A stretch of 64,000 nucleotides of DNA from Vermamoeba vermiformis (lineage: Eukaryota), in the NCBI GenBank assembly GCA_045837725.1, contig JBEWZL010000012.1:1-64000 (forward strand), read 5' to 3'. This document shows, one piece after another, positions 5,061 through 64,000 of the stretch. Under the pieces are notes generated by a model, which saw only the letters and a program-made list of their open reading frames with translations, ran no database searches and was not told the DNA's origin. Every line of letters starts with the position of its first letter. The stretch's first letter is position 1. The position numbers and the translations under genes are program-made.

Positions 5061-8000
5061 TTAGTTATCCTTCTTGGACTTGTTCTTCTTTGAAGGTGTA
5101 TTGCCTGAAGACTTGGCAGCAGCACCACTGACAGTCTTAGTGCCCTCTGGAGTGACAGGCTTAGTAGGAACAGACTTGATGGGCTTGAGGCACAAGTAAA
5201 TAGTGACCACAACAAAGATGATAACAGCAGCAATGATAACTTGGTTCTTCCACTTGGGAGGATTGAAGTCACTCAATGTGCACGCGATAGGGTTGTTTTT
5301 ATCATTAGGGAACAGTGGATTCTGTAGCGCAACCAATCAGTTCGAAATAACACCGTAAAGTAAAAAAGGGTGATTGTTTACCTTTTGGAGGCACTTCACG
5401 TTACTGTTGTCGTGAACCAAACGCCACAAAGCACTAGTACCGTGATCTTATGGAGCATTAGTTCATTAGTCGTCATACGAATGTGAGCACAACTTACCGA
5501 TCAAGTTCAATTCGGTGATCCAGTACTTGTCAAACCAACGCGCATTCTTGCCCATATGCGGTGCGGGCTTCCACAATAACTCCTCAAGAGCGTTGGAAGG
5601 AGTGCAGTTGAAGGGCGATTGCACTAACAAGCACTTCATCATGCTGTAGCCTATTGTCTCGTGTTAATGAGTGTGCGGTTTAAGTCAATTCCTTCGTAAC
5701 GTACCAGGTGAGAATCGATCAGCAATACCCAAAGCGAACAAGCTGAACAGCGAAGTGATCAATTGACTGCGAGGAACAGTGGTACCAGGGTAGTAAGTCT
5801 CGTCCAGGTATTGACCAACGGTAAGATCTGAATGGATGCAAGAGTTAGTAAGGGATCGGTTTATAGCGACTAGACGCAACGTACCAACTTCATCGGGGTT
5901 AGCATAGAGACGCTTAAGAGCAGCCAAGTACTTGGGGTTGGTAGTGAAATCTTCGAACTTCTTGCGGATGGGGACTTCGGGAACACCAGTGTAGTAAGTG
6001 AAGTACTAAGAGAAACAAATGAGCACGACGTATTTACATTTGACGAAATAACTTACTTGGTTGAATGTGGGCAAACCACGCTCGCGCTCGTGATAAATGG
6101 TCCAAGCTACGAGATCAAATCCGGTGTGCTCTTGAGGGTCACCAAAGTTGAAGCGCATGTTGCGGTAAATATCAGAGGTACCCGTGTGGAAGCGAGGGAT
6201 CTTAATTGAGGCCATGCCACGCAACACAGCATCGAGACCGACCTTGAGGAATCCTTCAGCGTCGAAGGAAGTGTTGACAATGTTGTACGTGGTGACAACC
6301 TTGCCGCTTTCGTCGATGAGGGGCACATCAGTCGGGAGAATTTCGTGGAATCGATAGCCAATAGCCATCTCTTGCGAGGTAGTCACTGGCTTGCCGTTGA
6401 CGAGTGCAGGTTGGAACGGGTAAGGATGATAAGGGTTTAACTGCAACACGTTCTTGCCGTGCCATTGACGGAACAACGGTAAACCATCTGTAGCAATGAA
6501 CGTTAGATAAGCTTGTAACGAATGATGATGCGATCTGTCGTCGTACCCCATCTGGGCTTGGGCATCTCCTTGGTGAAGTAAGCTTGTTGGTAGAGATTAG
6601 CAATCATCTGATACTTGGTGGACATGGCAATGCGAGCAAAGTTGAACAGCTTGTCGTCGTCCCAGTCCGGATGTTGAGCCACGAGCAGATCACAAACTCT
6701 GTTGTGTTCACGGAGCAACAAAGTCTCGATAGCCATCAACAACTGTACGATTGGGATAATTAATCTTAATAGTAGACGAAGTAAATTGCTGCGGAGACGT
6801 ACCCAATCTTGGTTACCGCGCGGATCACCGGTGGCGAACAATTTGCTTTGGTTCGCGTTACCAATCATGTGCAAGCCCAAAGTGTTGAAGGGAGGATATT
6901 CGCCACCGTCAGGACCGATTTGAGTCAACATCTTGCCTTGTTTACCCAAGCGCAACTTGCGACCCATTTCTTCATCCGTGCCGTACATTGCTGACAGATC
7001 GAGCCAGCTAGTAGCGCCGTTCATAGTTTGACGAGGGTTGGAGCTATTAGTACCTGTAAAAATGCATATTTAGAAGACATAATCAAAATCAACCGCGGTA
7101 AATTGACACGAAGATTTCAATCTCGTCATTCAGCTGTCAGATCCACAAACACAAAATAAATAGTCATGCGATTACTCACCAGTACCCTTAATAGGTTGAT
7201 TACGCCACACGGGCATTTTCTTGTTGCCTTCGCACTTGGGATCAAAGAAAGGATCGCACTTGGGAACGGGAATATATTGCAGATCCTTTTGTGACGGAAC
7301 ACTCCAAGCGATGTCATGAATAACGAACTCGATCAAACCAACCAAGATTGGTGTGTGCTCGTAACCGGTCTCGTTGGTAGTCTAAATCACAGTGAGTTGT
7401 TACGCCGGCGGTTGAAAATCAGATGCAGTTCCACGTTACCTTAGCGAAAAACTCGTTGCTGAGTTCACGAGGGCTAGGGCCTTTACGAGGAGTCGAGGCC
7501 ATATATATTCGTATTAGCTTAATCAGTTCGCGCGAAATAATTGCAACGGTTACTAATTTAAACCTCTTTTGAAGAAACCACAAAATCGAGATGATTATAA
7601 TCAGTAAAATATTATAAAGTACTTACGCCGTCGTCATAATAAGTAAAAGGAACGTCGCGAGAGAACGCGTTTCCGGCCTTTCCGTATTCTGCCTCGCCAT
7701 CCTTGGGCCAGTTGCAAGAACCGTCCATAGTACGATAATAGAACTTTTCTGCAATAAGATCGCCGTTAGCATTTTTTTGGTGAATATTCTAACGCATCCA
7801 AAAAGATATTTTTTAAATCCGGGTCTTTACCTTTTGATTGGCATTTAGGGTCTACTTTCCAGTCCTTTGGCAAGCCAAGAGCGGCAGCATTATCCCACTC
7901 ACCGCCAGCTTTGTGGACGCTGTGTCGAAGCAAACGGTCGAAATCCTCTTTGGCAAAAGGCATGTCGCTGGCGAACTTCATGAAGGGGTAATCGTCGTAC

Positions 8001-8158
8001 TCGACGCCCAAAGTATCCAAAGCCATGTCTTTGTAGTAATGGAGCCATTCTTCCCAGTTCTCTTCGTGTTCATCGTTGTTTACAAACGGATTGGAAGCCG
8101 ACGCGATCAAGGCCGCGCATACAACCATAAAACCAATAAACCAAAGCTTGTTAGCCAT
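5061..8158 (-). CDS. Heme peroxidase (peroxidase-cyclooxygenase superfamily), alpha-dioxygenase/COX-like, with signal peptide and C-terminal TM anchor; multi-exon
   Basis: Exons encode LIEFVIHDI (distal His region), NGATSWLDLSAMYG, GDPRGNQ, LLREHNRVCD..HPDWDDDKLF..AR, GYRFHEILP (proximal His) and ERERGLPTFN. There is an N-terminal hydrophobic signal and a C-terminal VIIAAVIIFVVVTIYLCL followed by a Lys-rich tail. Confidence 0.9.
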
Positions 8159-10878: not shown

Positions 10879-12561
10879 TCACTTCAGCTTTGTCAAACGA
10901 GCACGAATAGATCCTTGACAGAATGGCATGCCAATAGCGCTGTAATAAACTACCGTTAGCACACAACATGCATTATGAACACGCGCCAAGCCTTACCGTG
11001 AAAAATCAGGAGCAGTGATGGGCGACAAGATTTCGATCTTGTAATTGGAAAACAACTCTAGCCAGCTGGTCTTCAGCACAGTGTTGGCAAACTTCTCGCC
11101 CAAACAGCGGTGCGGAGTGAATCCCCAGGGCATGTAAGTCTTCTCTTCGTTGTACTTCAAGTAGTCATCGCCGGCAAAGCGGTCAGGGTTGTAGACTTCA
11201 GGATTAGGGAAGATCTCGGGGTCGTTGTGGATCAAGTGCGGTGCGATGGCAACAATCTCACCCGTAGGAATGGCGCGGCCTCCGTACTCAGCTGGCACGA
11301 GAGCACGACGCGACAAAAACAACAAAGCGTAGCGACGAATAGTCTCCTTCAACACACTGTCCAAGAAATTCAATTTGTTCAATGTGTGCAGATCTACTTT
11401 GTTGCCACCTGTAGCTTGTTCAGCGTCTTTACGAGCACGCTCTTGGAACTCAGGGTTTGAGCCAATGTGTGCGAGGGACCAGGCAAGAGTACCAGCAGTG
11501 TTCGTGTGCGCGGCGAACATCAACGCGACGAGTCCAGACGAGAACCATTTGGCGTACTTCTCTTGCGGGTATCCGTCTTCCTGGGCCATGTTGAGGTTAG
11601 TTTGCAAGTAGTCCATGTTGTTTTTGTATTCCTCTTTGTTAGCCATACGTCTCTCGGTCTGAATTAAGATGGTTAATTATTGAGCTGTTTGACGAGAATT
11701 TGGCACGTACCTCCTCGGCGATGATATCAACGAGGCGTTGGCGAGAGTTCTTGACTAGTCTGTTTGAAGCGGTAGGGATCCAAGGTGCTACGAGCGAGAG
11801 TGGCTTGAAAGCGTTGAGCTCGATGTTGTAGTATGCTCGAGCGAATTCTTCGCCATACTTCTTATAAGTAGGCTCGCCCAAGAAGCACAACAAATTGCAA
11901 AGCACGACAATGCGCGAGATCTGCACGATGGAAGATTAGAACGGCACATAATCAAAATGACACGTGTCAAACACAAACCTCGGGAAACAGATCGAACTCT
12001 TCCATCTCTGCCAAGCGAGCGAATTGTTTGCGAGTCTCGTTGTTTACACAGTTGAAATAAAATTGCAATTTATCCGGCCGCAACAAGCCTTCAGACATGT
12101 AACGTGTGTCACCGTCGGGCCCTTCGGATTCCCACGCATCTGGGCCCACAACAGCTTGCACAAATCTTTTTGTCGCTGAAAATAGCGTATTAATAGTCAT
12201 GAAATCGGAATGGCTCTTATCTTACCCTTAACTGTCATTTCGTTTTCTGGGGCCTTGAAGAATTTCAAAATATCGCTTTTGTCGAAGCAGATCGTCATTC
12301 GCAATAAGAACAGATCAACAGTGAAGATGTTTCCGTACTTTTTTCTGGCCTCCGTAAGTAGAGCGGCAGGGTTTTCTGTGTTTGAGAAAAAACGTCAGAT
12401 CAGATCATAGATCGCAAAAAAGTATACTCACCTCCAAATTGCTTGGCTACGCTTGTTCCAGCTAAAAGCGGTATTCCAGGAATAGGTTTTGATTGAAGTG
12501 TTTTGGACACGAAGACCACAGCCAGTACAAGGGAAAGAAGAACCAACAACGCGATGTACAT
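10879..12561 (-). CDS. Cytochrome P450 (CYP51/CYP7-clan-like); multi-exon
   Basis: N-terminal TM MYIALLVLLSLVLAVVF, I-helix ALMFAAHTNTAGT, ExxR (ETIRR), PDRF, and heme motif PWGFTPHRCLGE. Confidence 0.92.
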
Positions 12562-49243: not shown

Positions 49244-50386
49244 TCACATGGGTGCGAGAGGATTGTGCGAGGGTCCAGCAGCATTCATTTCTGCTTTGGG
49301 CTTGTTCTTGAACGTCAAAAACAACTGCAATCGTTGACACGTTAGTCATTGCCTAATATGGTAATCATCGTGTACGTACCTGAAACGACTTCTTCTCTTT
49401 GTCCCACGAGGTCCAGAACTTGCTCTTGGCGCGGTCAGGGTCAATGTACCGTTCAATTTCGTAATTGGGAATTTTGAATGCAATTGTCTCGTAGGGCTCA
49501 GCAGCGAACAGGATGTATTGATAGCGACGATCAGGGGCCTCTTTCTTCTGTTCAAATGTCGACATGAAGCGATGACGTGGCTGAAATCCCTCTTCAATCT
49601 CGGGGTAATCAATCTGAAACAGCAGACTCAGCGCATTGCTCTCGGCATCGCGCTGCTTCGTGACGCTGAAACCTGGACGACCAATCTTCACTGTGCGCTT
49701 GGGCTGCACGACACCGACCTTCTTGGTGACACTGAGCGAGGGCCCGGCCACTGCTGGACCTGCGCCCCCGTCTGTCATGCGCTGATCACGTGCTGCTCGG
49801 CGCGCCAAGTTCATTTGATGGCGCTTGCCCTGTCACACATATGACGTGAGTACTGCGTGGTTATATAGAAGGGGGGTGCGTACCTGTGTGTGTGCGAGGT
49901 ATGAGCCTTCATTCGTGTGCAGCGTGAGACACAGCTTGCACTCGTACGTGCCCAAGTGGTTCTTCATAAAGTACGGATCCTGCATGCAAAGAGTAAGATC
50001 GTAGCTCTTGTAGTGGCACATTAGTGAGGGTAATGATGTACGTACCTTGGATAAGTCAATGGTCTCCAAAGCTAATTGACGCAATCGTTCGCGACGATCG
50101 ACATTGCTATCACTGCCTGATGCAACTCCTGCTGAGCCGGGCTTGCTACCAAAGTCCCTATAATACCAAGGGTCAATATTTACTCTTTTAATATGAATTT
50201 TCATCGCAACCACAACGATCCAAGGAAACTGCTAGCAGATTTTATTTATTAATTTGTTTTGAACCAAGGAAAATACTAATTATTTACAAAAATTACTAAG
50301 ACATATTAAATAATATTGGCACGATAGATAACAATTTATTATTTAATGAGAATTATCGCTTAATTTGATAATACTTACTTGGACAT
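49244..50386 (-). CDS. SF3A2: Splicing factor 3A subunit 2 (SAP62/Prp11); multi-exon with an 8-nt first coding exon
   Basis: DRRERLRQLALETIDL.KDPYFMKNHLG.YECKLCLTLHTNEGSYLAHTQ, KIGRPG, and QYILFAAEPYETIAFKIP. Confidence 0.95.
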
Positions 50387-50544
50387 TGTTCTATGTTATA
50401 TGAATGCAGAAAATAATACAAATAATATACACAATTATGGCTAGAGTCCGAATATAACGTGTGCTCTTCAGCCGATCAATGGGAACAAAATACGAGCGAA
50501 GAAAAAGTTTATCTTTGTCTAACAGATCAGCAAACAAAACAACC

Positions 50545-51281
50545 ATGGCAGACAACGAGCGAATGGAAGATGACGTGAATGTCGATACTGACGAGTCAGG
50601 ACGACGAGTGCGCGGTCGTGGTGGCATTGAACCTATGGATGCAGCAGATTCAGAACGATATAGCGGTCAAGGCGCTGTATTTGAACGATTAGACAGTGAT
50701 AATTTAGAACCTGGTCAACCTATTAAATGTGCGTATTATTATTACCACTTTACCACAAGTAGAGTTAATTTAAGAATTATGACGAAATTCAATAATTATT
50801 TTTTATTTTATTTGAGGCTTTACTGATCAATATGACCTGAGTAAAGTAATATTTATTTACAATAATTTATTTTAAATAATCACATCGCTTATCCATTGCA
50901 ACAGCGGTCGAAGGTTGGATCGTGTTTGTGAGTGGCGTGCACGAAGAGGCCACGGAAGAAGAGCTGATGGACAAGTTTGCAGACTTTGGTGAGATCAGAA
51001 ACATTCAAATGCCGCTCGATCGTCGCACTGGCTTCGTCAAGGGCTACGCACTCATTGAATTCGGTACGCGCGAAGAGGCCCAACAAGCGATCGAGACCAT
51101 GCACGGCAAAGCATTCATGAACAAACCGCTCAGCGTTGATTGGTCATTCGCCGTGCCTGCCAAGAACGCTGCACGCAAACGGTGAGTAGTGCTGTCAATA
51201 GTGCAGTGCGTGGTGCCTGACAAGTAGCTGGATGTGCTGAACTGACTTTGTGTTTGCAGGGGCGGACGTGATCGCAAATAG
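50545..51281 (+). CDS. RBM8A: RNA-binding protein 8A / Y14 (exon junction complex); 3 exons
   Basis: RGRG, P.K.VEGWIVFVSGVHEEATEE..DKFADFGEIRNIQMPLDRRTGFVKGYALIEF. Confidence 0.95.
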
Positions 51282-51477
51282 TGCCAGTAGTATAGTGTAG
51301 TGTATCTGATGTTAATTAGCGAGCAATAAATTGTGCAACATTATCGAAGCGAGAGCTTTTCTTCATGGGTCAATGTCAACTTTGGCTACTACTTGCATCA
51401 CAGTCAATGCAAAAGTGTGTTATATTACATGTAAGTACCATATTACAATATATTTACAATATATATGATGACTGCAG

Positions 51478-52409
51478 TTAGCTAAAGTAACTGTTTTCTA
51501 ACAACTTAGCCACAGGCTTCCTGAGTAGCGGCATACTAAACATGTTCTGCACTAGACGTCGTGCTCGTCGATCGACGGCGTGCCACTTGACGTCACTCGT
51601 CACTGTCGCTGCGGGGAATATTCTTTCAAAGCATTGCGCGATAATTGTGTCCGGTAAGTCGTTTAACAACTGGTAAGATAATATTAGGGAAATCTAATCA
51701 AACTGCATTAATTGTGCTCACCAATTCTGCAAATATGACACCAGCGGAGTAGATATCGGCATTCGGAGACACCATTTCATCTTCATAAAAGAACTCAGGC
51801 GCGAAATAGGGGCCCGTGAACGGCGCTTTTGGAGCTCCTTCAGGCAGCAGTGAGCCAGATCTTTTGGTCTCTATTAGAAACAGATTGCACAGAGCAATGT
51901 CTGGTTTGCCCTTCGTGTTCCAACGCCATTTGATCGACTCTGGGCAGATAAAGCGGTGTGCTAAACTTCGTGCGTGTAGCTCGCGTAAGATCTGAAAGTA
52001 ACAGTAAATTGAGGGTCAAAAATAACCGTTAGCTTACAATAAGCAGCTGGCGCATTACACGTTTAGTATATTTGCGCAACACTTCCACATTGTAGGGGTG
52101 CCATTGTTCGTTTTGAGGGTCAATATTCACCGTGGCTATTTGATAGTGATTGTTGAATTTAGCAACGCAAAGACTTAATGCCATTTCATAAGTGTTGTGT
52201 TTGTCTTCACTGTGTCTCTCTAAGAATGGAAAAATGAGTTCGAAGGTGGTTTTTGTACTAAAACACGGATAACGGCTAGTTCCCAAGAATTGTTTACTTT
52301 TGGCGGGATCTGAGAGAACATAATGGACGGCTTCCCCGGGGAGCAGCAACAAGGAGGCGGTACGAGCCATCATTCTGCAATCGACAGGGAGGACGGAATG
52401 GCTAGGCAT
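51478..52409 (-). CDS. Protein-kinase-like protein, probably a pseudokinase; 3 exons
   Basis: MRQLLI|ILRELHARSLAHRFICPESI..IALCNLF..TGPYFAPEFF..ADIYSAGVIFAEL shows the subdomain VI-IX pattern with HRD->HRF and DFG->NLF. Confidence 0.65.
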
Positions 52410-52824
52410 CCGATACTGTACAATACAGTTATATGATGAAGCGCAACGTTGTGTTCTGGGGAGGCTGCGTCGAGAGCGGACTGGGCGTACTATCTATCTG
52501 ACATTGCACGCAATTGATGGAGCTGGAATTGAGAAATACGCGTAATTATCAATGACCCCCATGATTACATGAATCTTGATCCTATTTTCAATTTCGTAAT
52601 GCCCTTTGAATACTTCTGTTTATCAGCTGTTCCGTAACGTTTACGATCAAAAGATCGCACGCATCGCGCCAGGTCCACGTGAGCACCGTTCAGTGAATGA
52701 CTTTCCAACCGGTCCCGTTCATGAAAATTCAAAATCGCGGAGGATTTTTTGACAACTTGCGCACCGCTTCATTCAATTAATTTCTAGCACTCAACACCAA
52801 CACCACACAACACTATAGACTACA

Positions 52825-54789
52825 ATGGGTCAAGGCAGCTCCACTCGTAATAGCGACGACATCGTCAGATGGGCGCACAAGAAGCAACAACTCGACAAGC
52901 AAGAGGCTTTACGTCGTTCTAATCGCGACAACTTAATCATGATAGACCCTGATGCAGTCACTTTTGAAGACGACTCTGAAGACACGCGCATGCCTGTCGA
53001 TCCTGAAGGTTTCAAGCAGATGTTGAGGAAAATGGGCATTAAATTTGTTGAAGAGGACAAGTACGTTGCATAGCATTCATAGCATTCATACCATTTCAAA
53101 TCATATCTTACTAAACGCTCTATTTAGTGCACCACCTTTCAATGCAGATGCTGTGGTCAAAATCAATTCCACGTTGCAACAGCCCGACTACACGTTGCCC
53201 TGGCAGACATTGGACGTCGCTGAAGCACGAGGTATGTAGTGGAGTGATTGGCATGATCATGTATCTAAGTCATTGTCAAAAGGTTCTGGTGCTGTCATTG
53301 AAGGCGGATTTGTTTTGACTGCTGCTCACGTGATCGCTGACTGGACCTTCGTAAGAGTGCAATGATACTGAATATATATTAGCAGTATTAACACCATTCA
53401 CAGCTCGAAATTCAACGCGGCAATGACAAGTGTCCCGCCAAGTAAGTTACACCACAATTCCTCGTGAAATACTTGCAAAGACTAATCACGTGCGCAGAGT
53501 GGTCGGAGTGTGCAATGACAGTGACCTCGCACTGCTCAAGCCCACAGACGAGAACTTCTTCAAAGACATCCAGCCGCTCAAGATTGGTCCCATGCCGCCT
53601 CTCCGTCACCGCATCTACGTGGCTGGTTTTCCGATTGGTGGCGAGGAAATTTCCGTGACTGAGGGTGTCGTGTCGCGCATTGAAATTCAGCCGTACAGCC
53701 ATTCACTGAAGCAATTGTTAGCGATTACTGTCGATGCTGCCATCAACAGCGGAAATTCTGGCGGTCCAGTGATGAACCAGCACGGTGAACTCATCGGTAA
53801 TTGCCTAATTTGGAAAACAATACCTTGTCACGTGCTGACTGTCGCATTCAGGCATTGCATTCCAAGCCCTGGAAGGAGCCGAGAACATTGGTCACATCGT
53901 GCCCCCGCCAGTGATCAATCACTTCTTGGCGGGCATTCAGAAGTTCGGCAAAGACTACCGCGGATTTCCTGATTTGGGCTTGGCCGTGCAGACCCTCGAA
54001 AACGCCAATCAACGCGCGTTGTTGGGACTGCCGCACGAACTGACCGGCGTGCTGGTGGTGCGCGTGCACTACAACAACAGCTGCACCAACGTCCTGCGCA
54101 CGGGCGATGTGTTGCTGAAGATTGGCGAGCACGTGATTGCCAACAACGGCATGATCACCTTCGACACCAAGCTGCACGGAGATTTCACGCTCGCTGTGCA
54201 CCAGTACCAAGAAGGTGACACCGTCAAGTGCGAAATATTCCGCGAGGGCAAGGTGCAAAGTGTCGATGTGACGCTCAAGTACCCGCACGACCTCGTGGCC
54301 AGTCACCGTTACAACGAGCAGCCCGAGTACTACATCTATTGCGGCCTCTTGTTCCAGCCCCTCTCCGTGGATCTGCTCGAGGCCCACTTCTCGGGGGGTC
54401 TCTTGTCGGCCCCGCAAGAACTGCTCTATCTCAGCACGCAGGACGAGACTGCTGAGCGCGCGGAGATTGTCGTGTTGACACGTGTCTTCAAGGACGACGT
54501 CAACTTTGGATACGAGGCCCTGCAGTTCAGCGTGATTCGCTCGCTCAACGGCACACCCATTCGCAGCGTGGCTGATTTGACACGTGTCATTGAGAGCACC
54601 GAGAGCGAGTTCTTGGTGTTGAAAGCATCGAACGACGCCACGATTGTGTTGCCGGGTGCTAAGAACAAACTCGCGACCAAGGCCAACAAACGCATTGGCA
54701 AGCGCTATGGCATCAAATACGACCGCTCAGCGCTGCTCGTGCAAGAACAGAACAGCGATCCTGCGCCCTCGGAGGCTGAGAACAAATAA
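52825..54789 (+). CDS. Deg/HtrA trypsin-like serine protease with PDZ domains (plant DEG2/9-like); multi-exon
   Basis: AVVKI..PDYTLPWQ, LTAAHV, DSDLALL, GFPIGGEEISVTEGVVSRIE, DAAINSGNSGGP, and YYIYCGLLFQPLS. Confidence 0.93.
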
Positions 54790-55364
54790 TGATGATATCA
54801 ATTGACTTCTAGCTGAATAAATCACTGTACATATTTTAATAGACTGGCCATTCATTCAACTTCCTTCCCTTGTTTGAGTCTTGCTCGACGACACTGTCCT
54901 TGAGGTTCGTTGGTGATTGCTTGACTCCATCTGCCAATCCAGACTGGCGCCTCGAGAAGTTCGGTCAGTATAGCCTTAATTATGCCATCAAAATCCCACA
55001 AGACTGACTGTAATAGAGCAATTAATTACTTCATAACACCGAACAAAGCAATTTGAGCTATTTGATCCTGTAGTGCTACAAGGCAATTCTGACACGAATT
55101 CATCTATATGATTCGTGGTGTGAATATTAGAATAATTAATTTTAAAGCAAATTGTGTGGGTGTATCAGCCGTTGACTGGTTTCAATCAAAGCTGATCCCA
55201 GACACGCTTGCCTACAATTGTTAAATGAAGTACATATAATACACGTATAATCGTTACTTCACTTCACGCGAACGGTCCGTTGTGTTCTCACGTTGGAGTT
55301 AATAATGCTCAGTCCATTTTTATTTTTTTGACGAGGAGAAGAGATCTGCTCAATATACACAGGA

Positions 55365-56167
55365 ATGAGTTCTAGACAAGGCATTCCACTCGTTCAAGAC
55401 AGTCCACCCCCTGGCGGCTATCCTCCCGTTAAGCCTATCCGTCGGCTGTGGCGCACATCTGGATTGGGCGGAGTCACGGCTTTTGTCGTTACTGGTGCTG
55501 TGTTAGTGCTTGGATTTTTAAAAGTAACTAAATTCAATCTCAAACGAAGGTACGATATTATAATACGAATTATGGAGGCATTGAAAGCGAATATAAAATT
55601 GATCTTGAATCTAATAATAATTATTATAATTCAATAATTAATTGGTAATACTGTATTAATATTTATTTATTTATTAGGGATGATTTTGATGAAATGAGAC
55701 AAGCCAGGTTACATATTCTGCCATATTTACAAGCAGAATCTGACAGACGGTATGAATCCACTCCAATTACGCGCAACAATTATTATCACAAAGAATTTCT
55801 ATTTTATTGTTAGTGTGGCATATTGTGGCTTCAATAGACAATTTTCCAACCCTGTTTTCCTTACAAATTGACGCAGATATTTTTCACAGCACCAATTTCA
55901 CAATTGCACTTAAATAATTATATTACGACACGAGACTAGTTCAATAATAATATACGCACATTACTGCAGCGAATTTACGCTGAAATTACTGCACAATTAT
56001 TTGGCTCTTCGTGGCCCTCACACCAGTCCCTGACTAACACCCCTCGCAGCTATTTGCGCATGAAAAAACAAGCGCTCGAAGAAGAAGCAAAGATTATGAA
56101 GGACGTGCCCGGCTGGGTCGTGGGCGAAAGTGTATATAAGACGCAGTGGATCCCGCCCTCCAAGTGA
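55365..56167 (+). CDS. NDUFA13: NADH dehydrogenase 1 alpha subcomplex subunit 13 (GRIM-19); 3 exons
   Basis: [27 protein letters not shown], and [19 protein letters not shown]. Confidence 0.93.
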
Positions 56168-56429
56168 AACATGTCGCATACAACAATACAATCTCTACAA
56201 ATATCTTATTGACATTCAACGTGGCCGTGAAACAATTGTGCCACGGAAGTTATTGCAGTAATTTCGTGCAAATAAAACCAAAAACACTAAAAATATCAAC
56301 TGCGGAGGAACAGAGGAGAACATTAGGGAAGATGTGAATATGCATCTAATAGAACAGATAGATTTATTATAATACAAATAATTTAACGTTTTAAATACAA
56401 GTTTTGAGGATTGAGATCCAGATTCAGAT

Positions 56430-59400
56430 CTACTGCTTGGTGAGCAAGTGAATCAGCTTGTTGATCGCATCGATCCACTCATCGCACTCCTCTTTGGTGT
56501 CAGCAGCAACGGTGTAGATGCGCTCAGGTGTTTTGAGTTCAAATGCGTAGTACTGATGGGTCTTGAGGGTGCGCGGAGTGCTGGGCTGCACAAAGGGACA
56601 CAGCGAGAGGTGAATCACCGCATCGGGCTTGGACTTCTTGGGCTTGAAGTACTTGAGACTGCCGTTCTCGAGCACAAACTTGTACTTCTTGTACTCTTTC
56701 TTGCGATAGCGGTACAGCGTGCCTTGTTTGTTCATCGCAGCCACGAGACTGGTGTTCACCTCTCTGTCGCGGTGTTCAATCTCCGACTTGGACTTGACTG
56801 ACGAGCTGCTGCCCGTGCTGTTCACGCGCTTGATGTCTTTCTTCGAGCGCTGTTTGCGCGGTGACTTGTCGCGGTGTTCAGTGCTCGGGGTGGTCGGGGT
56901 GCTGGGCGGCTCTTCAGCAGCGCGGATCTCTTCTTCGTACTTGAAGCTGATCCACTTCCAGCGCGCTTCAACTCCGTCCTTGGCATTGGGCGGTGTCAGA
57001 CCAGCCACGCGCTGCTTGTACTTGTCTTTGTGACGCGCGTTGTTGACCTGTTTGCAGGCAGTGACGTCATCAGCGGACCACGTGTTGGGCTTGTCGAGGG
57101 CGCGCAGTCTGTTGAGTGCTTTGAAGGTCTGATGACTCTGTGCACAGTCGCTGCAGATCCAGGCCTGCACCGCGAGGGACATGTGCGTGGTCTCTTTGCC
57201 GCACTCGACGCACACTTGATTGTCACCGCGTCGACTCTCTTGCACGGCTGCAAATGTGCTGTCCTTGTCCTTGGCCTCGCGCTGCTTGAAGTCGTACAGG
57301 AACAGATAGACTGACTTGCGAATAGCGTTGATCCACTGCAACTTCTCGTCGAGATTGTTCGCGGACAAGAAGTAGATCCGCTCGCGCGTCAAGAGCTGGA
57401 AGCTGAAGGGTCGATCGACAATGCCCAGCGCACGCGCAGTGCAACTGAGCACGTGAACGGAGCCCGAGGGTTCAATGACATTCGGCACCTCGACTGTGAT
57501 GCCCTCGTCCTTGATCACCGTCACATCGACCTTCTGCTCGCTCTCTGCGCGCAAGAGATAGTCGTGCACGGTCTGCGGCGAGGTGTTGACGACAGTCGTG
57601 GCCGAGTGCGTGACAGCACTGACAGCATTGATCAGCGAGTCCACCACCACTGCTGCAGACTTGTCTTGAGCAGGGTAGTAGTTGAGAATGCAGCCGTTCA
57701 GCACAAAGTGTTTGCACTTCCACTCATCGTGCTTGCCTTTTTTGTACAAATCGCCCTCCATGAAGACCTTGCCGTTCATGAACGCGAGCGATTTCTTCTC
57801 CTCTTCTTCGCGTCGCTGCGTGGTGTCAAACAGACGTGAGCGCATGGCCTCGAGCTGCAGTGAGATGGAGTCGTCGAGATCGCTCAGCCAGTCGTACTTG
57901 TCTTGACTCGTTGTCGCGGCTAAGATCACCGTGCGACGTTCTGCCACGGAGGCAGGGAGCGGACTGTCACTGCCGCGACCAGGGCCAGGACTCGAGGGCG
58001 CAGTGATGGCATTGGCCATGGACATATCACCGAGCGAATTGGACTTGGCGCGACTGCCGTTCATGGCCACGAGACTCTGCGCGGCAATCACTGCGGGCCC
58101 GACTTGCGTGACAATGTTGGGCATGTCAGAGCCCTGGATCTGGAACAGATTGGCGTATTTGATGGACTGCTGGTCGTTGATGTTGTGCAGCTCAGCTTGT
58201 TTGAGGGGCACAATGTACAAGAACTTGAAGTCCACATCGCTCTGCTTGAGCTCGTCCATGGTGTACGCGCTGGGATGTGCGCCACTCTTGGAGGCCTTGC
58301 GCGCACTGCTGGCACTCTTCTCTTTGGTGACGACGATAATGTCCGTGAACAAGAAGCAGTAGCGCATCTTGGCACGCACCTTGCTGGCATCGAAGGTGGC
58401 AGGGGAGCTCATGCCGTCAATCTCCAATAAGCGCCCTTGACGCACGTAACGGCGATGCGGCACTGCAAAGTTGTAGTTGGGATCGAGACCCGACAGCTTG
58501 CCCCAGATGAGCAGCGTGTTGTTCAAGTTCTCGGCCTCGCGCTTCTTTTCATTCACGTATTCAGCGACGGACTGCATCTTCTCGAGTGCTTTCTTCAAGT
58601 TCTGATAGTCTGCGTGACTCTCGGGTGTGTTTTTGAACAGATCTTGCAGCAACAGCACGTAGCGAGGGATGCGCTGCACGGGCAAGATGAGGAACGAGCT
58701 GATTTCGAGGTTCTCGCACTCGGGACGTGCGCGACACTGCATCAACAGCTCGAGCACTTGCGGCTTCTTCATGACATTGAACAGCGTCGAGCACGCCGTG
58801 TTGTAATTGTTCACGTAGGCAGTGTACACCTTGAGGTACTCGGTCATGGCCAAGAAGATGTCGCCCAACTTCTGTCCCGACGAGTACCACTTCTCCATGC
58901 GTGCTTTGAGCTGCTTCAAGATCTCGGAATTGTACAAGCGAATCACCTCGCTCTCGGAGAAGATGCTGCGCAACATGGCCGGCGAGACGAGTTCTGCGGG
59001 CAGCTTGGAGAGTGCATCGAGATAGACGGACTTGAGCACCTCCAATCGACGCACGTACACCTCCTCTGTGCTGATAATTTCGCGTGCGATTTCATTGCGT
59101 TTGAAGCGTGATTTCATCTTTCTGCGCTGCAATCTGCCGCGCACGAGTGCTTGAATGCGCACCAGGCCCTTGTATGCGCTGCTCTCGGTGTGCGTGAAGG
59201 ACTGCAGCACCGCGTCCAAGCGCGTCATCATGCGTCGATACTTGACTTGCGCGAGATATCTGCGAATGAGACTCTGCGCCATGACAATTGCACTCTCCGA
59301 CAGTGCAGGGGTGCTGCGGTGCACGGCGAGAGGACTCGTGCCCGTGGTTGGACTGCTCGCGGGCAGAGGTTCGCGCTTCACGAGCGGTCGTTCGTCGCGC

Positions 59401-60181
59401 AGTGTGGGCTTGGCGATTGCGCTGTCAGTGGCTGAAGTCGCGAGACTCTGTGCCTTGCCTGCACTCGGCATGGAGGTCACCGAGGCAGTGCGTTGAAATG
59501 GATCTGGTGGTCTCTTCCACACGCGGTTGTGTGGCATGCCGTCTGATTCCGCACTCGCTGCTGGTTCTGCTGCTGGTTCAGGATTCTTTGTCTTGTTAAT
59601 CAACAAAAATATCAAGCCCATGACTTGTTTCTTGTTTCCCTCCATAATATCTGCAAGCAAAATAATTGTGTGAGTCGTGAAATTTAAATTGAATTGACCA
59701 ACAATTAAATCGGCATTATTTTGATAATAATTTCATTTGCTAGACTGTCACTTTTTAAGTTAAGTATGAATTAACTGGACTAATATTGTATATAAAAAAA
59801 TCTTTCTTACCATTCGCGTTAACCGAAAACAAATTCACGCTCCAATGACGCTCAATAAAGCGAATTCCCGTCATAATGTTATCTACCTTTTGACTAGGGA
59901 ACTTAGGGTTGGGATTGTAGCGGCCAACCTTCTGGCCGGTCAAAATTTCTAATAGCTGAATCAGAACTACTCCATCTCGAAAGTCGGTTGCAAAATCAGA
60001 CACAGTTCGATTTTTGACAGCTAAGTGTCGATTGGCCCATGTCAAAAATGACTGATACAACGAGAATTAATAAGATTTGTAATGAAAATCTTTTTTCTAC
60101 CTGATTCTGGATGTCTCCCCAATCGGTACTGAGCGAGTGGACGGCTAAGTCCCCACTAGACTGACTGGGCTGTTGCGTCAT
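56430..60181 (-). CDS. GxcDD-like RacGEF: CH + 2 IQ + DH + PH + PH + ArfGAP-like + PH; 3 exons
   Basis: CH (FLTWANRHL..DFRDGVVLIQLLEIL), IQALVRG, REIISTEEVYV..LILPVQRIPRYVLLL, PH motifs, CVECG..CSDC, and a C-terminal PH. This matches the known Dictyostelium GxcDD architecture. Confidence 0.88.
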
Positions 60182-60444
60182 GGTATCTCGACTTTGTTGA
60201 AAAAGAAAATCTCGCAAGCCGAAAAGAAATCTCCGTGATCAACAGAGAACTCACACGATTGGTCGATTTATTTTATCAAATTTAACGAACATATTTTATT
60301 GCTTCGTTTCGTGGCCTTTGTTTTTTCCTCTTATCTCGGAATTGAGCTACAGTACGTACCTTCCGCGATGACCAATATTAATATTCTAACGATGTTTTAT
60401 TATTAGTCTTTACCGTTACTTAGAGTAAAACAAAACTCTTTAAG

Positions 60445-61428
60445 ATGTCACAAATTCCCGACGCTCTCGCCCTCACTCAAGAGGATGCTCGTATGATGCT
60501 TGCTTGCAACGTCCACATTGGTTCTACCAACTTGGACTCTGCTATGGAGCGATACATCTGGAAGAAATCCTCCTACGTTAGAGAGAAGGAACGCGAAGGT
60601 AAAAATGGGAATAATTAAATAAATAATAATATAGCAAAAGTAATTTAAATTACGCCAATAACACTATTGTTATAATTTTTTAAGTTGTGGATCTTCGATC
60701 GTGGAGTTGATATTAATTGTATAAAATATTAATTTTTTATTGCAGGTGCTTACATTATTGACATTCGCAAGACCTGGGAAAAGATCGTCTTGGCTGCCCG
60801 CGCCATCGTCGCCATTGAGAACCCCCTCGACATTGCCGTCGTTACCGTCCAAGGTACTGGCGAGCCCCTCGCTCAACGCGCTGTGTTGAAGTTCTCTCAA
60901 TACACCGGTGCTGCTCACTACGCTGGTCGCTTCACTCCCGGTACCTTCACTAACCAGATCCAAAAGCAATTCGCCGAGCCTCGCTTGTTGATCGTTGCTG
61001 ACCCCTTGAAGGACCACCAACCCATCATTGAAGCCTCTTACGTCAACATCCCCGTCATTGGTTTCTGCAACACCGACTCCTCGCTCCGTCACGTCGACAT
61101 TGCCATTCCTTGCAACAACAAGTCCCGCTTCTCCGTTGCTTTGACCTTCTGGCTCTTGGCCCGTGAAGTCTTGCGCCTCCGTGGCACCATCTCCCGCTCT
61201 GAACCTTGGGACGTGATGGTCGACTTGTTCTTGATGCGCTCTGCTGCTGAACAAGAGAAGGCTCAATCTCAAGCCCAAGCCCAACAACAAGTTCAATCTA
61301 CTCAACAAGCCAGCTACGACGAGTTCATCGCCAAGGGTACCACCACTGGTCAAGGTATCGTCGGTGCCAGCACTAACTGGGCTGATACCCACGAGGATGC
61401 TGATGAGCCCCCCGCTGACTACGAATAA
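60445..61428 (+). CDS. RPSA: 40S ribosomal protein SA (uS2); 2 coding exons
   Basis: [45 protein letters not shown], and [17 protein letters not shown]; strong ribosomal-type codon bias. Confidence 0.97.
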
Positions 61429-61560
61429 GAGCCCTCTTCTAGCGAATTAAAATAATAAAAAAACCTTAAAAAGTACCCTTTTCACTTGATATGAGGTCCA
61501 AAGAAATTGTAATTAATAATGCAAATGTATTTACAGCAAACAAATGTACACAACAAGTCT

Positions 61561-64000
61561 TTACAAGCCCACGATGTTTTGCACCGCTCTGGCCAGTTGC
61601 GCAATGTTCAAATCGGCGGAAGAACTCAGCGCGTGCAGCACTGACGCGTCCAAGAATGTTGGCAAAGCTTGGCGCGTGAGATCGTAGCGCAACAGATCGT
61701 GAATGCACGCGAGAGATTGCACCACGACTGCCGCATTGTGATGTGCCAGCAGTGCGCTGAGTGGTGGCAAGCCCTGATCGATTACAGACTGCAAATGAGT
61801 GCTGTCCAAGGTCGATTGCACCAATCGCAGCACGTGAAGGATGCGGAGCTGGAGCTGAATGTCATCTGCGAGGGCGAGGGTCTTGAAGCAGTGCGTGGTG
61901 AGATCACGTGACATGAGTTCCGCGCGTGCCCTGGTGGAGAACAACATGTTGCCGAGCAGCATCACCGCGTTGTGCACGATCTGCAAATCACTGTTCTCTT
62001 CGCTGTCCATGTACTCCATAGACACGTGTGCCAGCATGCTGTCCAACACTGTCACGTGATTGGTCACAATGAACTCGCGGTTCTGTTCAGCGAGCGTGAG
62101 GTGCATCAGTGCCAACAGGACACTCTCGCGCAATAGACTGCTCAGCCGTGCGGTCTGACTGCTGTCGTGCTGCACACTCGCTGCGAGCTGGTCGAGGTCA
62201 CTGAGCAGCGTCACCAGGGCGCGCAAGACACCTGTCACGCGCATGTCATCCTTAGCTGTCTTGCACAGTGACAACCAACCAATCAGCTGCACGCTGTAGA
62301 TGACATCTGCCAGGGACAGGGCACTGCGGTCCACGTGCTCGGTGTGATATCCGTCGTCGGGGAGTGTTCCTAATATGGTCAACACCGTGCGCAGTGCGGG
62401 CATGACATCTTGCAGCAGAATCAAGTCGCGCACGTGATTGGCGGTCTGAGCGAGGGTGAGCAGCATGAGCAGCGTGGTCTGACGTATACCAGGGCCGTGC
62501 TCTGGATCACAAGCACGTGACAGCGACTTATTTAGCAAGAGCACGAGACTCTTGGTGAGAGTGGCGAGGTGATCGGCATCGATCTGTTGTGTCACGTGAT
62601 GCGGATTGTTCATGAGCACGCGGTACATGATCTGCAACACGGCTGTCAAATCGCTGTCCAACAGTGGTTGATTGGTCACGTGATCGCTCAAAAACAGATT
62701 TTGAAATCCCGCCAAATCGAGCAGGGTCGTGATGGCATTGCTCTGCTGTGAGAACGCATCGAGTCCGATCTGCGTGCGTGCCACGGCTAATAATAGCTGC
62801 ATGCCACTCGTCTTGATGCTGTCTACCAGGGCTTGTTGTGCCTCCGTGTCACTCGGGCCTGAACTTTGCACTTGTTGCGTCATGTCGAACATCACGGGAT
62901 TGGTGCTATTTTTGGGAGTGAACAGCGCGGCATCTTTCGTCACGTGACGACGCGAGGCGAGCACGGTGAGCAAGAGATCGACCAATCCGTGCTGCGCGAG
63001 CACTACGAGCACGTGATCGGTGTCAGCGAGCGATTGACACGCGCGAATGACATTGTACTGCAGCTGCAACAGACGCGTGTCATTCGGGGCACTCTGCGCG
63101 GCACGGTGCGACAGTCCCAGCACGGCAATCAAGTACTGCAAAGATTGCGCTGCCACCAGTCGGGGCCACAGTCCGCGATGCTGGCACAGCTGCACGATCA
63201 CGCGGCAACCGTTGTAAACACCCGCGAGATCTCCCTCGCTGCCCTGGTGTGTGAATCCAGTCAGGCCACTCACCAGGGCATCGAACTGCACGCGGGACAG
63301 CTGTCGTTCGTCGCGCACGTGCTCCACGATGTTTCCCAGCAAAAATGTGGCAAAGTCACGTGTCTGCTTGTCCGATGAGCCGAGCAGATTGATGACACGT
63401 GTCAAACTCGGATCACTGGCGAGCAGGCTGTCGACACGTGATCGATCGCCCGAATTGGTGCTGGTGATCAGTTCGCGCAGTGCCAGCAAGCGCCCTTCGC
63501 GGTGTTCAGATGCCAGCACGGCTATTAATAGCTCCACGCCACCCTGTGCCACCACACTCGACCACGTGCGCGGATCTTGCAAGCTGGCTGCTGTCACTGC
63601 TGCCACTAACTTGCCTAATAAGGCAGGGGACAACTCGTGCTCGACGATGAGTGTTACCAAAATAGGCAGTAGATCGCGTGATTGATCAGGGCTGGACTGC
63701 AAAGATAGCAGCAAGTCTACCGTGGCTTCAATTGGGGGAAGTTTTTCCGCAGGTGGTTGTGCCGAGGCTAAAAATAGCGACAGATTGCGTTTCAAGCTCG
63801 CGATGAGGTCCGGTGACTCGACCAGGGCAGCACGTGACTGCGGGTGTTGCTTCACCATGGTGGACAGCACGTGCACCAGGGCCAGTGCTTTTTTCATTTC
63901 CATTTTAGGATCAGTCACGTGCTCGTCGCCCTGGTTGAGCATGTTGCAGAGTGCCAGCACGCCACCCATGTTGAACCACGTGACAGCAACGCTCGCATCG
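61561..64000 (-). CDS. Armadillo/HEAT-repeat protein, 5' end beyond the window
   Basis: Open frame >800 aa running off the window end; Leu-rich helical repeats (GGVELLIAVL, GLVDLLLTVL, GVLRALVTLL, GLPPLSALL). Confidence 0.8.
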   Translation of the reverse strand, partial: DASVAVTWFNMGGVLALCNMLNQGDEHVTDPKMEMKKALALVHVLSTMVKQHPQSRAALVESPDLIASLKRNLSLFLASAQPPAEKLPPIEATVDLLLSLQSSPDQSRDLLPILVTLIVEHELSPALLGKLVAAVTAASLQDPRTWSSVVAQGGVELLIAVLASEHREGRLLALRELITSTNSGDRSRVDSLLASDPSLTRVINLLGSSDKQTRDFATFLLGNIVEHVRDERQLSRVQFDALVSGLTGFTHQGSEGDLAGVYNGCRVIVQLCQHRGLWPRLVAAQSLQYLIAVLGLSHRAAQSAPNDTRLLQLQYNVIRACQSLADTDHVLVVLAQHGLVDLLLTVLASRRHVTKDAALFTPKNSTNPVMFDMTQQVQSSGPSDTEAQQALVDSIKTSGMQLLLAVARTQIGLDAFSQQSNAITTLLDLAGFQNLFLSDHVTNQPLLDSDLTAVLQIMYRVLMNNPHHVTQQIDADHLATLTKSLVLLLNKSLSRACDPEHGPGIRQTTLLMLLTLAQTANHVRDLILLQDVMPALRTVLTILGTLPDDGYHTEHVDRSALSLADVIYSVQLIGWLSLCKTAKDDMRVTGVLRALVTLLSDLDQLAASVQHDSSQTARLSSLLRESVLLALMHLTLAEQNREFIVTNHVTVLDSMLAHVSMEYMDSEENSDLQIVHNAVMLLGNMLFSTRARAELMSRDLTTHCFKTLALADDIQLQLRILHVLRLVQSTLDSTHLQSVIDQGLPPLSALLAHHNAAVVVQSLACIHDLLRYDLTRQALPTFLDASVLHALSSSADLNIAQLARAVQNIVGL

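Follow-up and report, generated by a model that had tools for sequence, protein, structure and literature searches.

The exon at the right-hand end of the 64-kb window (the whole stretch of DNA that was analyzed) carries 20 copies of the palindrome CACGTG within ~2.2 kb of coding sequence (61831-63977, about 9 per kb), and our results support a DNA-level signal that changes the encoded protein. The enrichment is gene-selective, being found in three genes of the window, and is not a general exon code. With a probability of roughly 45%, we regard these arrays as E-box/G-box sites at which a dimeric DNA-binding protein, their putative reader, would dock. The features are summarized in Table 1.

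Table 1. CACGTG sites of the array exon and genes discussed in the text. Sites are palindromes and have no strand ("."); the relative (contigs L001 and L002) is 81-86% identical in DNA.
Feature	Position	Strand	Remarks
RhoGEF-PH-LRR gene	42788..48444	-	Multi-exon, 15 CACGTG; Pfam on ORF pieces, exon chain inferred from ORFs
HtrA-type protease gene (trypsin_2 + PDZ)	52886..54789	+	6 CACGTG; Pfam, RNA splice joints
RhoGEF-PH-ArfGAP exon	56433..59732	-	3.3 kb, internal negative control; 2 CACGTG vs 0.97 expected; similar GC3 (0.73)
CACGTG-array exon	61561..63999	-	Single unspliced exon, C-terminal 812 aa of WW-FYVE-Arm/HEAT repeat protein, ORF open at window end; 20 CACGTG
CACGTG	61831..61836	.	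Frame 0, His-Val-Leu; relative CATGTG: His-Val kept, motif lost
CACGTG	61905..61910	.	Frame 1, Ser-Arg-Asp; relative CACGCG, synonymous change
CACGTG	62023..62028	.	Frame 0, His-Val-Ser; relative CACGTC: His-Val kept, motif lost
CACGTG	62053..62058	.	Frame 0, His-Val-Thr; relative CACGCG
CACGTG	62332..62337	.	Frame 0, His-Val-Asp; kept in relative; G>A at 62337 in one strain's contig
CACGTG	62431..62436	.	Frame 0, His-Val-Arg; kept in relative
CACGTG	62514..62519	.	Frame 1, Ser-Arg-Ala; kept in relative
CACGTG	62593..62598	.	Frame 0, His-Val-Thr; kept in relative L002
CACGTG	62677..62682	.	Frame 0, His-Val-Thr; outside relative's contigs; P0001 Asn-Ala
CACGTG in 14-bp palindrome TCGTCACGTGACGA	62941..62946	.	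Frame 0, His-Val-Thr; hexamer kept in relative
CACGTG	63010..63015	.	Frame 0, His-Val-Leu; kept in relative
CACGTG	63316..63321	.	Frame 0, His-Val-Arg; relative CAAGTG; P0001 Gln-Val
CACGTG	63357..63362	.	Frame 1, Thr-Arg-Asp; kept in relative
CACGTG 63396-63401 in 12-bp palindrome TGACACGTGTCA	63393..63404	.	Frame 1, Thr-Arg-Val; whole 12-mer kept (L001 site at 8032)
CACGTG	63435..63440	.	Frame 1, Ser-Arg-Val; kept in relative
CACGTG	63563..63568	.	Frame 2, Arg-Thr-Trp; relative CATGTG
CACGTG	63831..63836	.	Frame 1, Ser-Arg-Ala; kept in relative
CACGTG	63868..63873	.	Frame 0, His-Val-Leu; kept in relative
CACGTG	63916..63921	.	Frame 0, His-Val-Thr; relative CAGGTG (Gln-Val); P0001 His-Val
CACGTG	63977..63982	.	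Frame 2, Val-Thr-Trp; kept in relative L001

A preliminary description of this DNA had listed the 20 sites, and all were found to be exact matches. They are located within a transcribed, unspliced coding exon (one RNA contig spans 61558-64000 without a joint), and not in a promoter or enhancer. Pfam matches of the ORF to Arm and HEAT were weak; a protein of 1762 aa (P0001), which is 93% identical to the array-exon protein, contains the families Arm, HEAT, FYVE, and WW. The uniform expectation of one copy per 4 kb adopted in the preliminary description was too generous to the excess, as local dinucleotide shuffles give ~2.3 copies in the 2440-base array region, but the excess survives every null model. 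Codon shuffling had been named in advance as a comparison able to overturn the idea, and it did not reproduce the density: permuting the codons of the ORF gave a mean of 2.06 copies (maximum 8) and synonymous shuffling a mean of 8.51 (maximum 15), with 0/2000 shuffles reaching 20 in either case. The whole window contains 60 copies, whereas 100 dinucleotide shuffles averaged 19.2 and none exceeded 33. The excess is specific to this hexamer. CACGTG is the top hexamer of the ORF (z=12.8), includes 20 of its 21 ACGT tetramers, and is accompanied by no enrichment in any of the 24 other palindromic hexamers tested in the ORF, while among CANNTG words of the window it has an observed/expected ratio of 3.05, the remaining words ranging from 0.31 to 1.28. 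Neither clustering nor spacing periodicity of the sites within the exon was significant (best period 485 bp, R=0.47, P=0.39 vs random placement), and nucleosome-scale spacing was not found among the exon's sites (R <=0.15 at 147-200 bp); the nucleosome-positioning role suggested earlier is not supported.

The sites occupy all three reading frames, with 12 encoding His-Val (frame 0), six Ser/Thr-Arg (frame 1), and two Thr-Trp (frame 2), a split that agrees with the one first reported. Each frame is significant alone, as the observed counts were reached in 6/5000, 0/5000, and 46/5000 synonymous shuffles, respectively. Taken together, the eight out-of-frame sites compare with 0.81 expected, a number reached in 0/5000 shuffles. 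The arginine of the frame-1 sites is encoded by CGT in six of six cases, although CGC is the main arginine codon of the ORF (24 vs 11). His-Val occurs 12 times in the ORF protein compared with 2.76 expected (4.3-fold), and none of 20000 residue shuffles reached this number. Conservation of these residues in orthologues was the other observation that might have spoken against a DNA-level signal; in nine distant homologues, His-Val was present at 0/28 aligned positions, and the idea is not refuted.

The motif-rich stretches noticed elsewhere in the window were recovered, with 16 copies at 42983-49792 and six at 53327-54586, and correspond to two further enriched genes. The region 42700-48500, covering the RhoGEF-PH-LRR gene, has 15 copies compared with 3.7 expected (0/300 shuffles reach 15), and the HtrA-type protease gene has six compared with 1.1 expected (0/300 shuffles reach 6). 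Two of the latter, at 53487 and 53829, are located inside the RNA-confirmed introns 53442-53497 and 53796-53850, giving two intronic copies in 282 nt where 0.03 are expected. A regex-based intron prediction missed introns inferred by eye and was dropped as a classifier. No enrichment was observed in the first 42 kb (1-42000; 15 copies vs 10.8 expected) or in the segments 48501-52800, 54801-56400, 56401-60100, and 60101-61560, and the RhoGEF-PH-ArfGAP exon, designated GxcDD in the preliminary description and credited there with about two copies, does contain two. The proposed gene-body code overlaid on exons is supported as a DNA-level signal; its generality and its restriction to exons are not, as enrichment is limited to some genes and includes introns. 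The enriched genes have no evident common function or expression level. The only bZIP seen in the window is encoded by a neighbor (36960-38036). For the ribosomal protein used for placement, the closest named relatives were animals at 60-70% identity, and a Pfam match to CfaA was too weak (E=3e-4, below cut-off) for an assignment to the amoebozoans.

Comparison with the relative, for which 12.8 kb of DNA was examined alongside the 64-kb window, showed partial conservation of the array: 12 of 19 sites are kept compared with 6.81 expected from codon-type-matched controls (P=0.008, for one relative and 19 sites). The excess conservation is mostly out-of-frame. The relative retains five of the six frame-1 sites, against an expectation of about 0.7, and the in-frame His-Val sites show no excess (6/11 vs about 5.6 expected). 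Third-codon positions are conserved at 33/38 inside the sites and at 63% outside. Where the two differ, at seven sites, it is always the window that has the motif and the relative that lacks it, and never the reverse; this asymmetry could reflect a one-way drive, and picking the window by density biases the count in the same way. Among the variants listed in the ORF from four RNA runs of strains, 1/22 falls on a site compared with about 1.1 expected, a comparison of low power. The relative's copy of the array gene and its upstream neighbor, an IF-2-type GTPase gene, are likewise enriched in CACGTG. The signal is assigned to the DNA level because the excess occurs in every frame, the His-Val excess has no support in distant homologues, out-of-frame sites are conserved, and sites are also intronic; the earlier suggestion of a DNA-level signal that bends the protein sequence is supported on the same grounds.

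The sites are dyad-symmetric, and the symmetry includes their flanks. For all 60 sites of the window, left (complemented) and right flanks do not differ (P=0.19-0.79), and the pooled flanks differ from background, with A>C>T and few G at +1 (P=1.5e-3) and pyrimidine at +2 (P=1.5e-5). T or G is favored immediately 5' of the core. TCACGTGA is present in five and CCACGTGG in none of the 20 exon sites, and the form GTCACGTGA(C/T), described earlier as that of many sites, does exist but accounts for only 4/20. CLEAR elements are defined by GTCACGTGAC; this exact 10-bp palindrome was found at only one of the 20 exon sites and twice in the window. Class B bHLH factors are described, in the part of PMC8431614 that concerns them, as generally symmetric dimers on symmetric sites, and a 5' T or GT is given there as separating Cbf1/USF/Max-type from Pho4/Myc-type binding. 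By the rule as worded in that part, the array flanks fit the Cbf1/USF/Max-type and not the Myc-type. The class B E-box/G-box sites (Cbf1, USF, Max, TFE/MITF, and G-box bZIPs) have the identical core hexamer and dyad-symmetric flank preferences.

The palindrome and its symmetric flanks are consistent with a bound dimer of the bHLH-ZIP or bZIP type, and we infer that the sites are read by a protein dimer. The array would then be a homotypic array of class-B E-box/G-box CACGTG, recognized in duplex DNA by such a dimer with dyad symmetry. Selection acting on the word in the DNA would write sites into any codon phase that the protein tolerates, and may have given a rapidly evolving helical-repeat region its lineage-specific pairs of His-Val, Ser/Thr-Arg(CGT), and Thr-Trp; introns, where present, would take up sites as well. 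Such arrays would mark particular genes, namely those of the WW-FYVE-Arm protein, the RhoGEF-LRR protein, and the HtrA protease and, in the relative, the neighboring IF-2-type GTPase gene. At a guess, binding may serve to regulate the gene from within or to establish a particular state of the local chromatin in a compact genome. A reader preferring RTCACGTGAY or GCACGTGC would accord with this reading. Known E-box/G-box sites usually occur singly or in small numbers, mostly in promoters or enhancers, whereas the array packs 20 sites, distributed over all frames, into 2.2 kb of coding sequence, with intronic copies elsewhere and at a cost to the protein; 20 sites spread over a gene body of >2 kb are unlike ordinary promoter-proximal E-boxes, and this speaks against the dimer-array reading. 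In dual-use codons and homotypic transcription factor site clusters, site words overlap coding sequence and constrain the choice of codons and amino acids. The array resembles these in clustering many copies of one site over codons, and its density and lineage-specific amino-acid pairs exceed the usual effects of dual-use codons. Searches of the literature on coding regions, gene bodies, protists, and amoebae revealed no account of CACGTG arrays (supplementary files aside).

Three other explanations were weighed against the dimer array. A side effect of protein or composition, in which His-Val has a structural role in the repeats and the word results from a preference for the codons CAC and GTG, would account for all 12 pairs being CAC GTG (CAC encodes 28/32 His and GTG 51/70 Val of the ORF) and for in-frame sites being conserved no more than their controls. 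Sites that are out of frame or in introns largely refute it, and it is further opposed by the His-Val excess that distant homologues do not share, by the mere 2.1 copies obtained on codon permutation, and by self-BLAST of the array-exon protein, which detected no internal repeats; we consider it highly improbable. An RNA-level element is quite unlikely. Clusters of a hexamer mark meiotic mRNAs in fission yeast, and CACGUG clusters in pre-mRNA might similarly be bound by an RNA-binding protein, or the copies of this self-complementary word might pair. Gene-specific enrichment and the presence of sites in exonic and intronic parts of transcribed genes alike would suit such an element, as would the folding of one exon half, which is somewhat better than that of shuffles (z=-2.17, equalled by 1/20), but the other half folds no better (z=+0.78) and no RNA structure consistent over the two halves was found. 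Instead of a strand-specific, non-palindromic word, we observed a perfect palindrome whose flank preferences mirror each other relative to the transcribed strand. A dimer bound to duplex DNA should produce such symmetry, which in an RNA motif would be fortuitous.

The remaining alternative is a mutational or repair drive, in which site-specific modification and biased mismatch repair turn near-cognate words into CACGTG with no benefit to the host. Sites in all frames and in introns agree with a drive, as do the one-directional differences from the relative, whose weight is reduced by the choice of the densest window. The C-to-T products CACATG/CATGTG are also scarce in the window (18 vs 51 expected). 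This resembled a very-short-patch-like signature, but the shortage is not specific, as CATG is low in general (CATG 0.61; AGCATG, CTCATG, and TGCATG equally low). The CpG observed/expected ratio (1.05 in the window, about 1.0 in the ORF), the only indirect indication on the modification target suggested earlier, gives no sign of methylation-type decay. A drive should act everywhere, yet the first 42 kb and the GC3-matched 3.3-kb exon are not enriched. We hold a drive to be unlikely. Precedent comes from HIP1 (GCGATCGC, cyanobacteria), for which the relevant part of PMC4390886 states that its frequency is believed to arise, or to be preserved, through processes at the level of DNA and includes a proposed model of methylation-dependent repair. 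HIP1 and the array are alike as short GC-rich palindromes over-represented in coding sequence irrespective of frame. HIP1 is, however, a bacterial 8-mer that occurs across the whole genome and is associated with orphan methyltransferases, whereas the array is built from a eukaryotic 6-mer confined to some genes, and a high frequency throughout the genome was not seen in the 64 kb and the 12.8 kb of the relative. If the array nevertheless resulted from repair drive, it would to our knowledge be the first HIP-like process in a eukaryote.

A bolder proposal, which we regard as rather doubtful, is that a dense DNA-level palindrome running through exons and introns marks selected genes, overriding amino-acid choice, and that a dimeric factor sets the state of the gene body (chromatin, replication, or elongation). 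Such marking would differ from ordinary regulation at promoters and would be a eukaryotic, gene-selective counterpart of the iterated palindromes of bacteria. If the sites of a DNA-binding factor are kept at this density in coding sequence, a non-coding signal has a share in determining the protein sequences of this lineage. The pairs His-Val, Ser/Thr-Arg, and Thr-Trp, which have no protein-level conservation, would then provide an exceptionally clear natural example of overlapping codes, and the array would help to measure how much a cis-element can cost a protein. The restriction of the arrays to particular genes also provides an entry point for studying how gene bodies are regulated in this eukaryotic lineage.

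The 12-mer TGACACGTGTCA belongs to a sub-class of sites in which inverted TGACA/TGTCA are separated by exactly 2 bp in 9/9 window copies, spacings of 0, 1, or 3-6 bp being absent from the window. A literature search on the 12-mer likewise gave no account of such CACGTG arrays (supplementary files aside). The palindromic TALE-homeodomain site ATTGACAGCTGTCAAT, as given for TGIF1 in the portion of PMC6158717 that describes it, has the same inverted elements 2 bp apart, and two window copies read TGACAGGTGTCA. In contrast to the site given there, seven of the nine copies have CG instead of GC at the center, and the likeness is relevant only to the 12-mer sub-class, which accounts for 1/20 exon sites. 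In a discriminative word search, GCCCTGGT/ACCAGGGC alone stood out besides the words containing CACGTG; it matches Ala-Leu-Val codons and was set aside as probably a protein-level effect.

Pattern searching located CACGTG at all 20 positions listed in the preliminary description, within the minus-strand reading frame at 61561-63999 (812 aa, open at the window end; hereafter the array ORF). The division among codon phases was also as described, with 12 copies in phase 0 (CAC GTG, His-Val), six in phase 1 (xCA CGT Gxx, Ser/Thr-Arg), and two in phase 2 (xxC ACG TGx, Thr-Trp), while the statement that many copies take the form GTCACGTGA(C/T) was too strong, this form being present at four sites. 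The window contains 60 copies (dinucleotide-preserving shuffles, n=100: mean 19.2, max 33), and CACGTG is the top over-represented hexamer both there and in the array ORF. The codon-shuffle nulls proposed earlier did not reproduce the density: codon permutation gave 2.06 copies (max 8) and synonymous shuffling with the protein unchanged gave 8.51 (max 15), 20 being reached in 0/2000 trials of either kind. The excess is significant in each phase separately, the observed counts being attained in 6/5000 (phase 0), 0/5000 (phase 1), and 46/5000 (phase 2) synonymous shuffles. Out-of-frame copies number eight against 0.81 expected (0/5000 synonymous shuffles), the minority Arg codon CGT is used at 6/6 phase 1 sites, and His-Val occurs 12 times against 2.76 expected (0/20000 residue shuffles). 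CACGTG accounts for 20 of the ORF's 21 ACGT tetramers. Enrichment was absent from each of 24 further palindromic hexamers, and only CACGCG (5 vs. 1.6 expected) and CGCGTG (6 vs. 1.9) are mildly raised.

Arm and HEAT matches of the array ORF are sub-threshold only. WW, FYVE, Arm, and HEAT families are present in a 1762-aa protein of 93% identity from public metagenomic data, which places the C-terminal half of a WW-FYVE-helical-repeat protein in the window. Among contigs from four public RNA runs covering the array exon, one runs through 61558-64000 (~99% identity) with no joint, which marks this stretch as a genuine exon that is transcribed and not spliced; elsewhere in the window, RNA contigs show GT..AG introns that are short (51-300 nt). 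The ribosomal protein SA gene (60407-61460, +) is convergent with the array gene, their ends lying ~100 bp apart, an arrangement also kept in a closer relative represented by two contigs, L001 and L002 (in L002). No named relative of this ribosomal protein exceeds ~70% identity, and the organism is a poorly sampled eukaryote. Runs of 11 studies, filed under several different organism labels with root and biofilm metatranscriptomes among them, have contigs with near-identical copies of 61561-64000; the source organism seems to be widespread, either as an associate of other sampled material or as a contaminant.

In the ortholog comparison suggested earlier, a full-library search gave only nine homologues, all weak and distant (best E=3.5e-17), with His-Val at 0/28 positions aligned to the array pairs; by these alignments the dipeptides are lineage-specific. 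The relative's contigs (81-86% DNA identity; 59-68% at third codon positions) span all sites but one, and CACGTG is retained at 12 of these 19, where frame-matched hexamers predict 6.7 (P=0.012) and central-CG hexamers 5.0 (P=0.0008); third-codon positions are conserved at 33/38 inside sites vs. 63% outside (P=0.001). Because CAC and GTG are preferred codons, the test was redone with codon-type-matched controls (6.81 expected, P=0.008). The excess stems from out-of-frame sites, phase 1 being kept at 5/6 vs. ~0.7 expected, and in-frame sites (6/11) are conserved no better than matched codons. Each of the 12 sites that the relative has within the alignment also occurs in the window, and all seven differences are present in the window and absent in the relative, a count biased by the choice of the window for density. 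One of 22 listed strain variants in the RNA contigs falls in a site (~1.1 expected), which is uninformative. The all-phase excess, the His-Val excess, and the homologues without His-Val support the earlier proposal of a DNA-level signal that bends the protein sequence.

CACGTG was counted by segment against 300 dinucleotide shuffles each (see table). Two copies in the HtrA-type protease gene, at 53487 and 53829, fall within introns confirmed by RNA (2 in 282 intron nt vs. 0.03 expected from base composition), and a RhoGEF-PH-ArfGAP exon with a comparable GC3 of 0.73 contains 2 vs. 0.97 expected. With CACGTG also in introns and some genes not enriched, a general exon code is not supported. The enriched genes have no evident common function, and their RNA contig depths differ widely, contig depth being a poor expression measure.

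Segment counts of CACGTG (observed vs. expected; shuffles reaching the observed count) and coordinates of related elements
Feature	Location	Obs. vs. exp.	Reached
Array exon	window 61561-64000	20 vs. 2.3	0/300
RhoGEF-PH-LRR gene	window 42700-48500	15 vs. 3.7	0/300
	window 52801-54800	6 vs. 1.1	0/300
Array gene, N-terminal part	L001 4530-7433	8 vs. 1.9	0/300
Array gene, C-terminal part	L001 7434-8716	8 vs. 0.84	0/300
Array gene, 3' end	L002 1-1049	4 vs. 0.68	0/300
Upstream, IF-2-type GTPase gene	L001 1-4529	7 vs. 1.5	0/300
	window 1-42000	15 vs. 10.8	37/300
	window 48501-52800	2 vs. 1.0	77/300
	window 54801-56400	0 vs. 0.24	300/300
	window 56401-60100	2 vs. 1.7	144/300
	window 60101-61560	0 vs. 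0.28	300/300
	L002 1050-4072	1 vs. 0.5	123/300
12-bp inverted repeat TGACA-SG-TGTCA	window 11958-11969, 29028-29039, 44362-44373, 46274-46285, 47113-47124, 47559-47570, 48055-48066, 54578-54589, 63393-63404		
12-bp inverted repeat TGACA-SG-TGTCA	L001 5366-5377, 8029-8040		
Introns ending CTGACACGTGTCAAACAG	window 28988-29044 (+), window 47554-47611 (-), L001 ~5330-5383 (+)		

The flanks of CACGTG are mirror-symmetric (complemented left vs. right, P=0.19-0.79); against background, the base adjoining the core is most often A, then C, then T, and seldom G (P=1.5e-3), and a pyrimidine follows at the second base outside (P=1.5e-5). CCACGTGG occurs at 0/20 array sites. Mirror-symmetric flanks around a palindrome, whatever the transcription direction, are expected of selection by a dimer on duplex DNA. 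According to a review, class B bHLH factors as a rule occupy symmetric sequences in the form of symmetric dimers, and a 5' T or GT adjoining the E-box distinguishes Cbf1/USF/Max-type from Pho4/Myc-type binding (PMC8431614). The best explanation, held tentatively at a probability of about 0.45, is that these are gene-selective arrays of E-box/G-box-type sites that would be bound by a putative dimeric DNA-binding protein.

In concept, the array comes closest to the highly iterated palindrome of cyanobacteria, for which methylation-dependent repair has been put forward as a model (PMC4390886). A comparable repair drive here is possible but has a low probability. CACATG/CATGTG, which C-to-T change would produce, numbers 18 vs. 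51 expected, but CATG is scarce overall (0.61) and other NNCATG words are equally low, so a signature of such a drive is not shown. Since CpG observed/expected is 1.05, there is no methylation-type decay. An element acting in RNA is possible but slightly less probable again; sense RNA folding by exon half is inconsistent (z=-2.17 and +0.78). Site spacing in the array has no periodicity (best period 485 bp, P=0.39; R <=0.15 at 147-200 bp), and the array protein has no internal repeat; like the exon code, the nucleosome code and modification target put forward in the preliminary description are not supported. No description of the phenomenon emerged from literature searches covering CACGTG in protists or in coding regions and the 12-mer below.

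A perfect 12-mer, TGACACGTGTCA, accounts for 7/60 window CACGTG sites, one of them in the array exon. The nine TGACA-N2-TGTCA loci in the window comprise these seven, with centre CG, and two of TGACAGGTGTCA, with centre GG (~0.1 strand matches expected); no TGACA/TGTCA pairs occur at spacings of 0 to 6 bp other than exactly 2, and five copies extend to TGACACGTGTCAAAC. Three unrelated introns of ~54-58 nt, predicted from splice signals and ORF starts, share the same terminal 18 nt (around window 29031 and 47562 and L001 5369) and are dissimilar outside it; there TGAC also serves as branch-point-like CTGAC. The introns at 46277 and 48058 were placed by splice signals and domain boundaries, not RNA. 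The shared ends could be a common functional 3' module or the trace of intron-spreading elements. The 12-mer layout is like that of TGIF1/TALE-homeodomain palindromes (canonical TGIF1 homeodomain site ATTGACAGCTGTCAAT; PMC6158717), but the centre differs, and the 12-mer looks like a second element with the CACGTG core in common.

Elsewhere in the window, a bZIP protein is encoded at 36960-38036 (+), with a hydrophobic segment, AGLCLMILLFSFGLFF, after its zipper, a layout that suggests a membrane-tethered ATF6/CREB3-like factor. Among other words, GCCCTGGT/ACCAGGGC occurs 15 times in motif-rich vs. three in control segments (P=4.5e-5, uncorrected for 939 tests) and is probably a protein-level repeat feature, since its translation in the array ORF is Ala-Leu-Val (GCC CTG GTx). 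By comparison with a first-order Markov model, CTAG (0.44), CATG, and CCGG (0.64) are under-represented in the window and GTAC (1.48) and ATAT (1.37) over-represented, and AACGTN words stand at 0.5-0.6.
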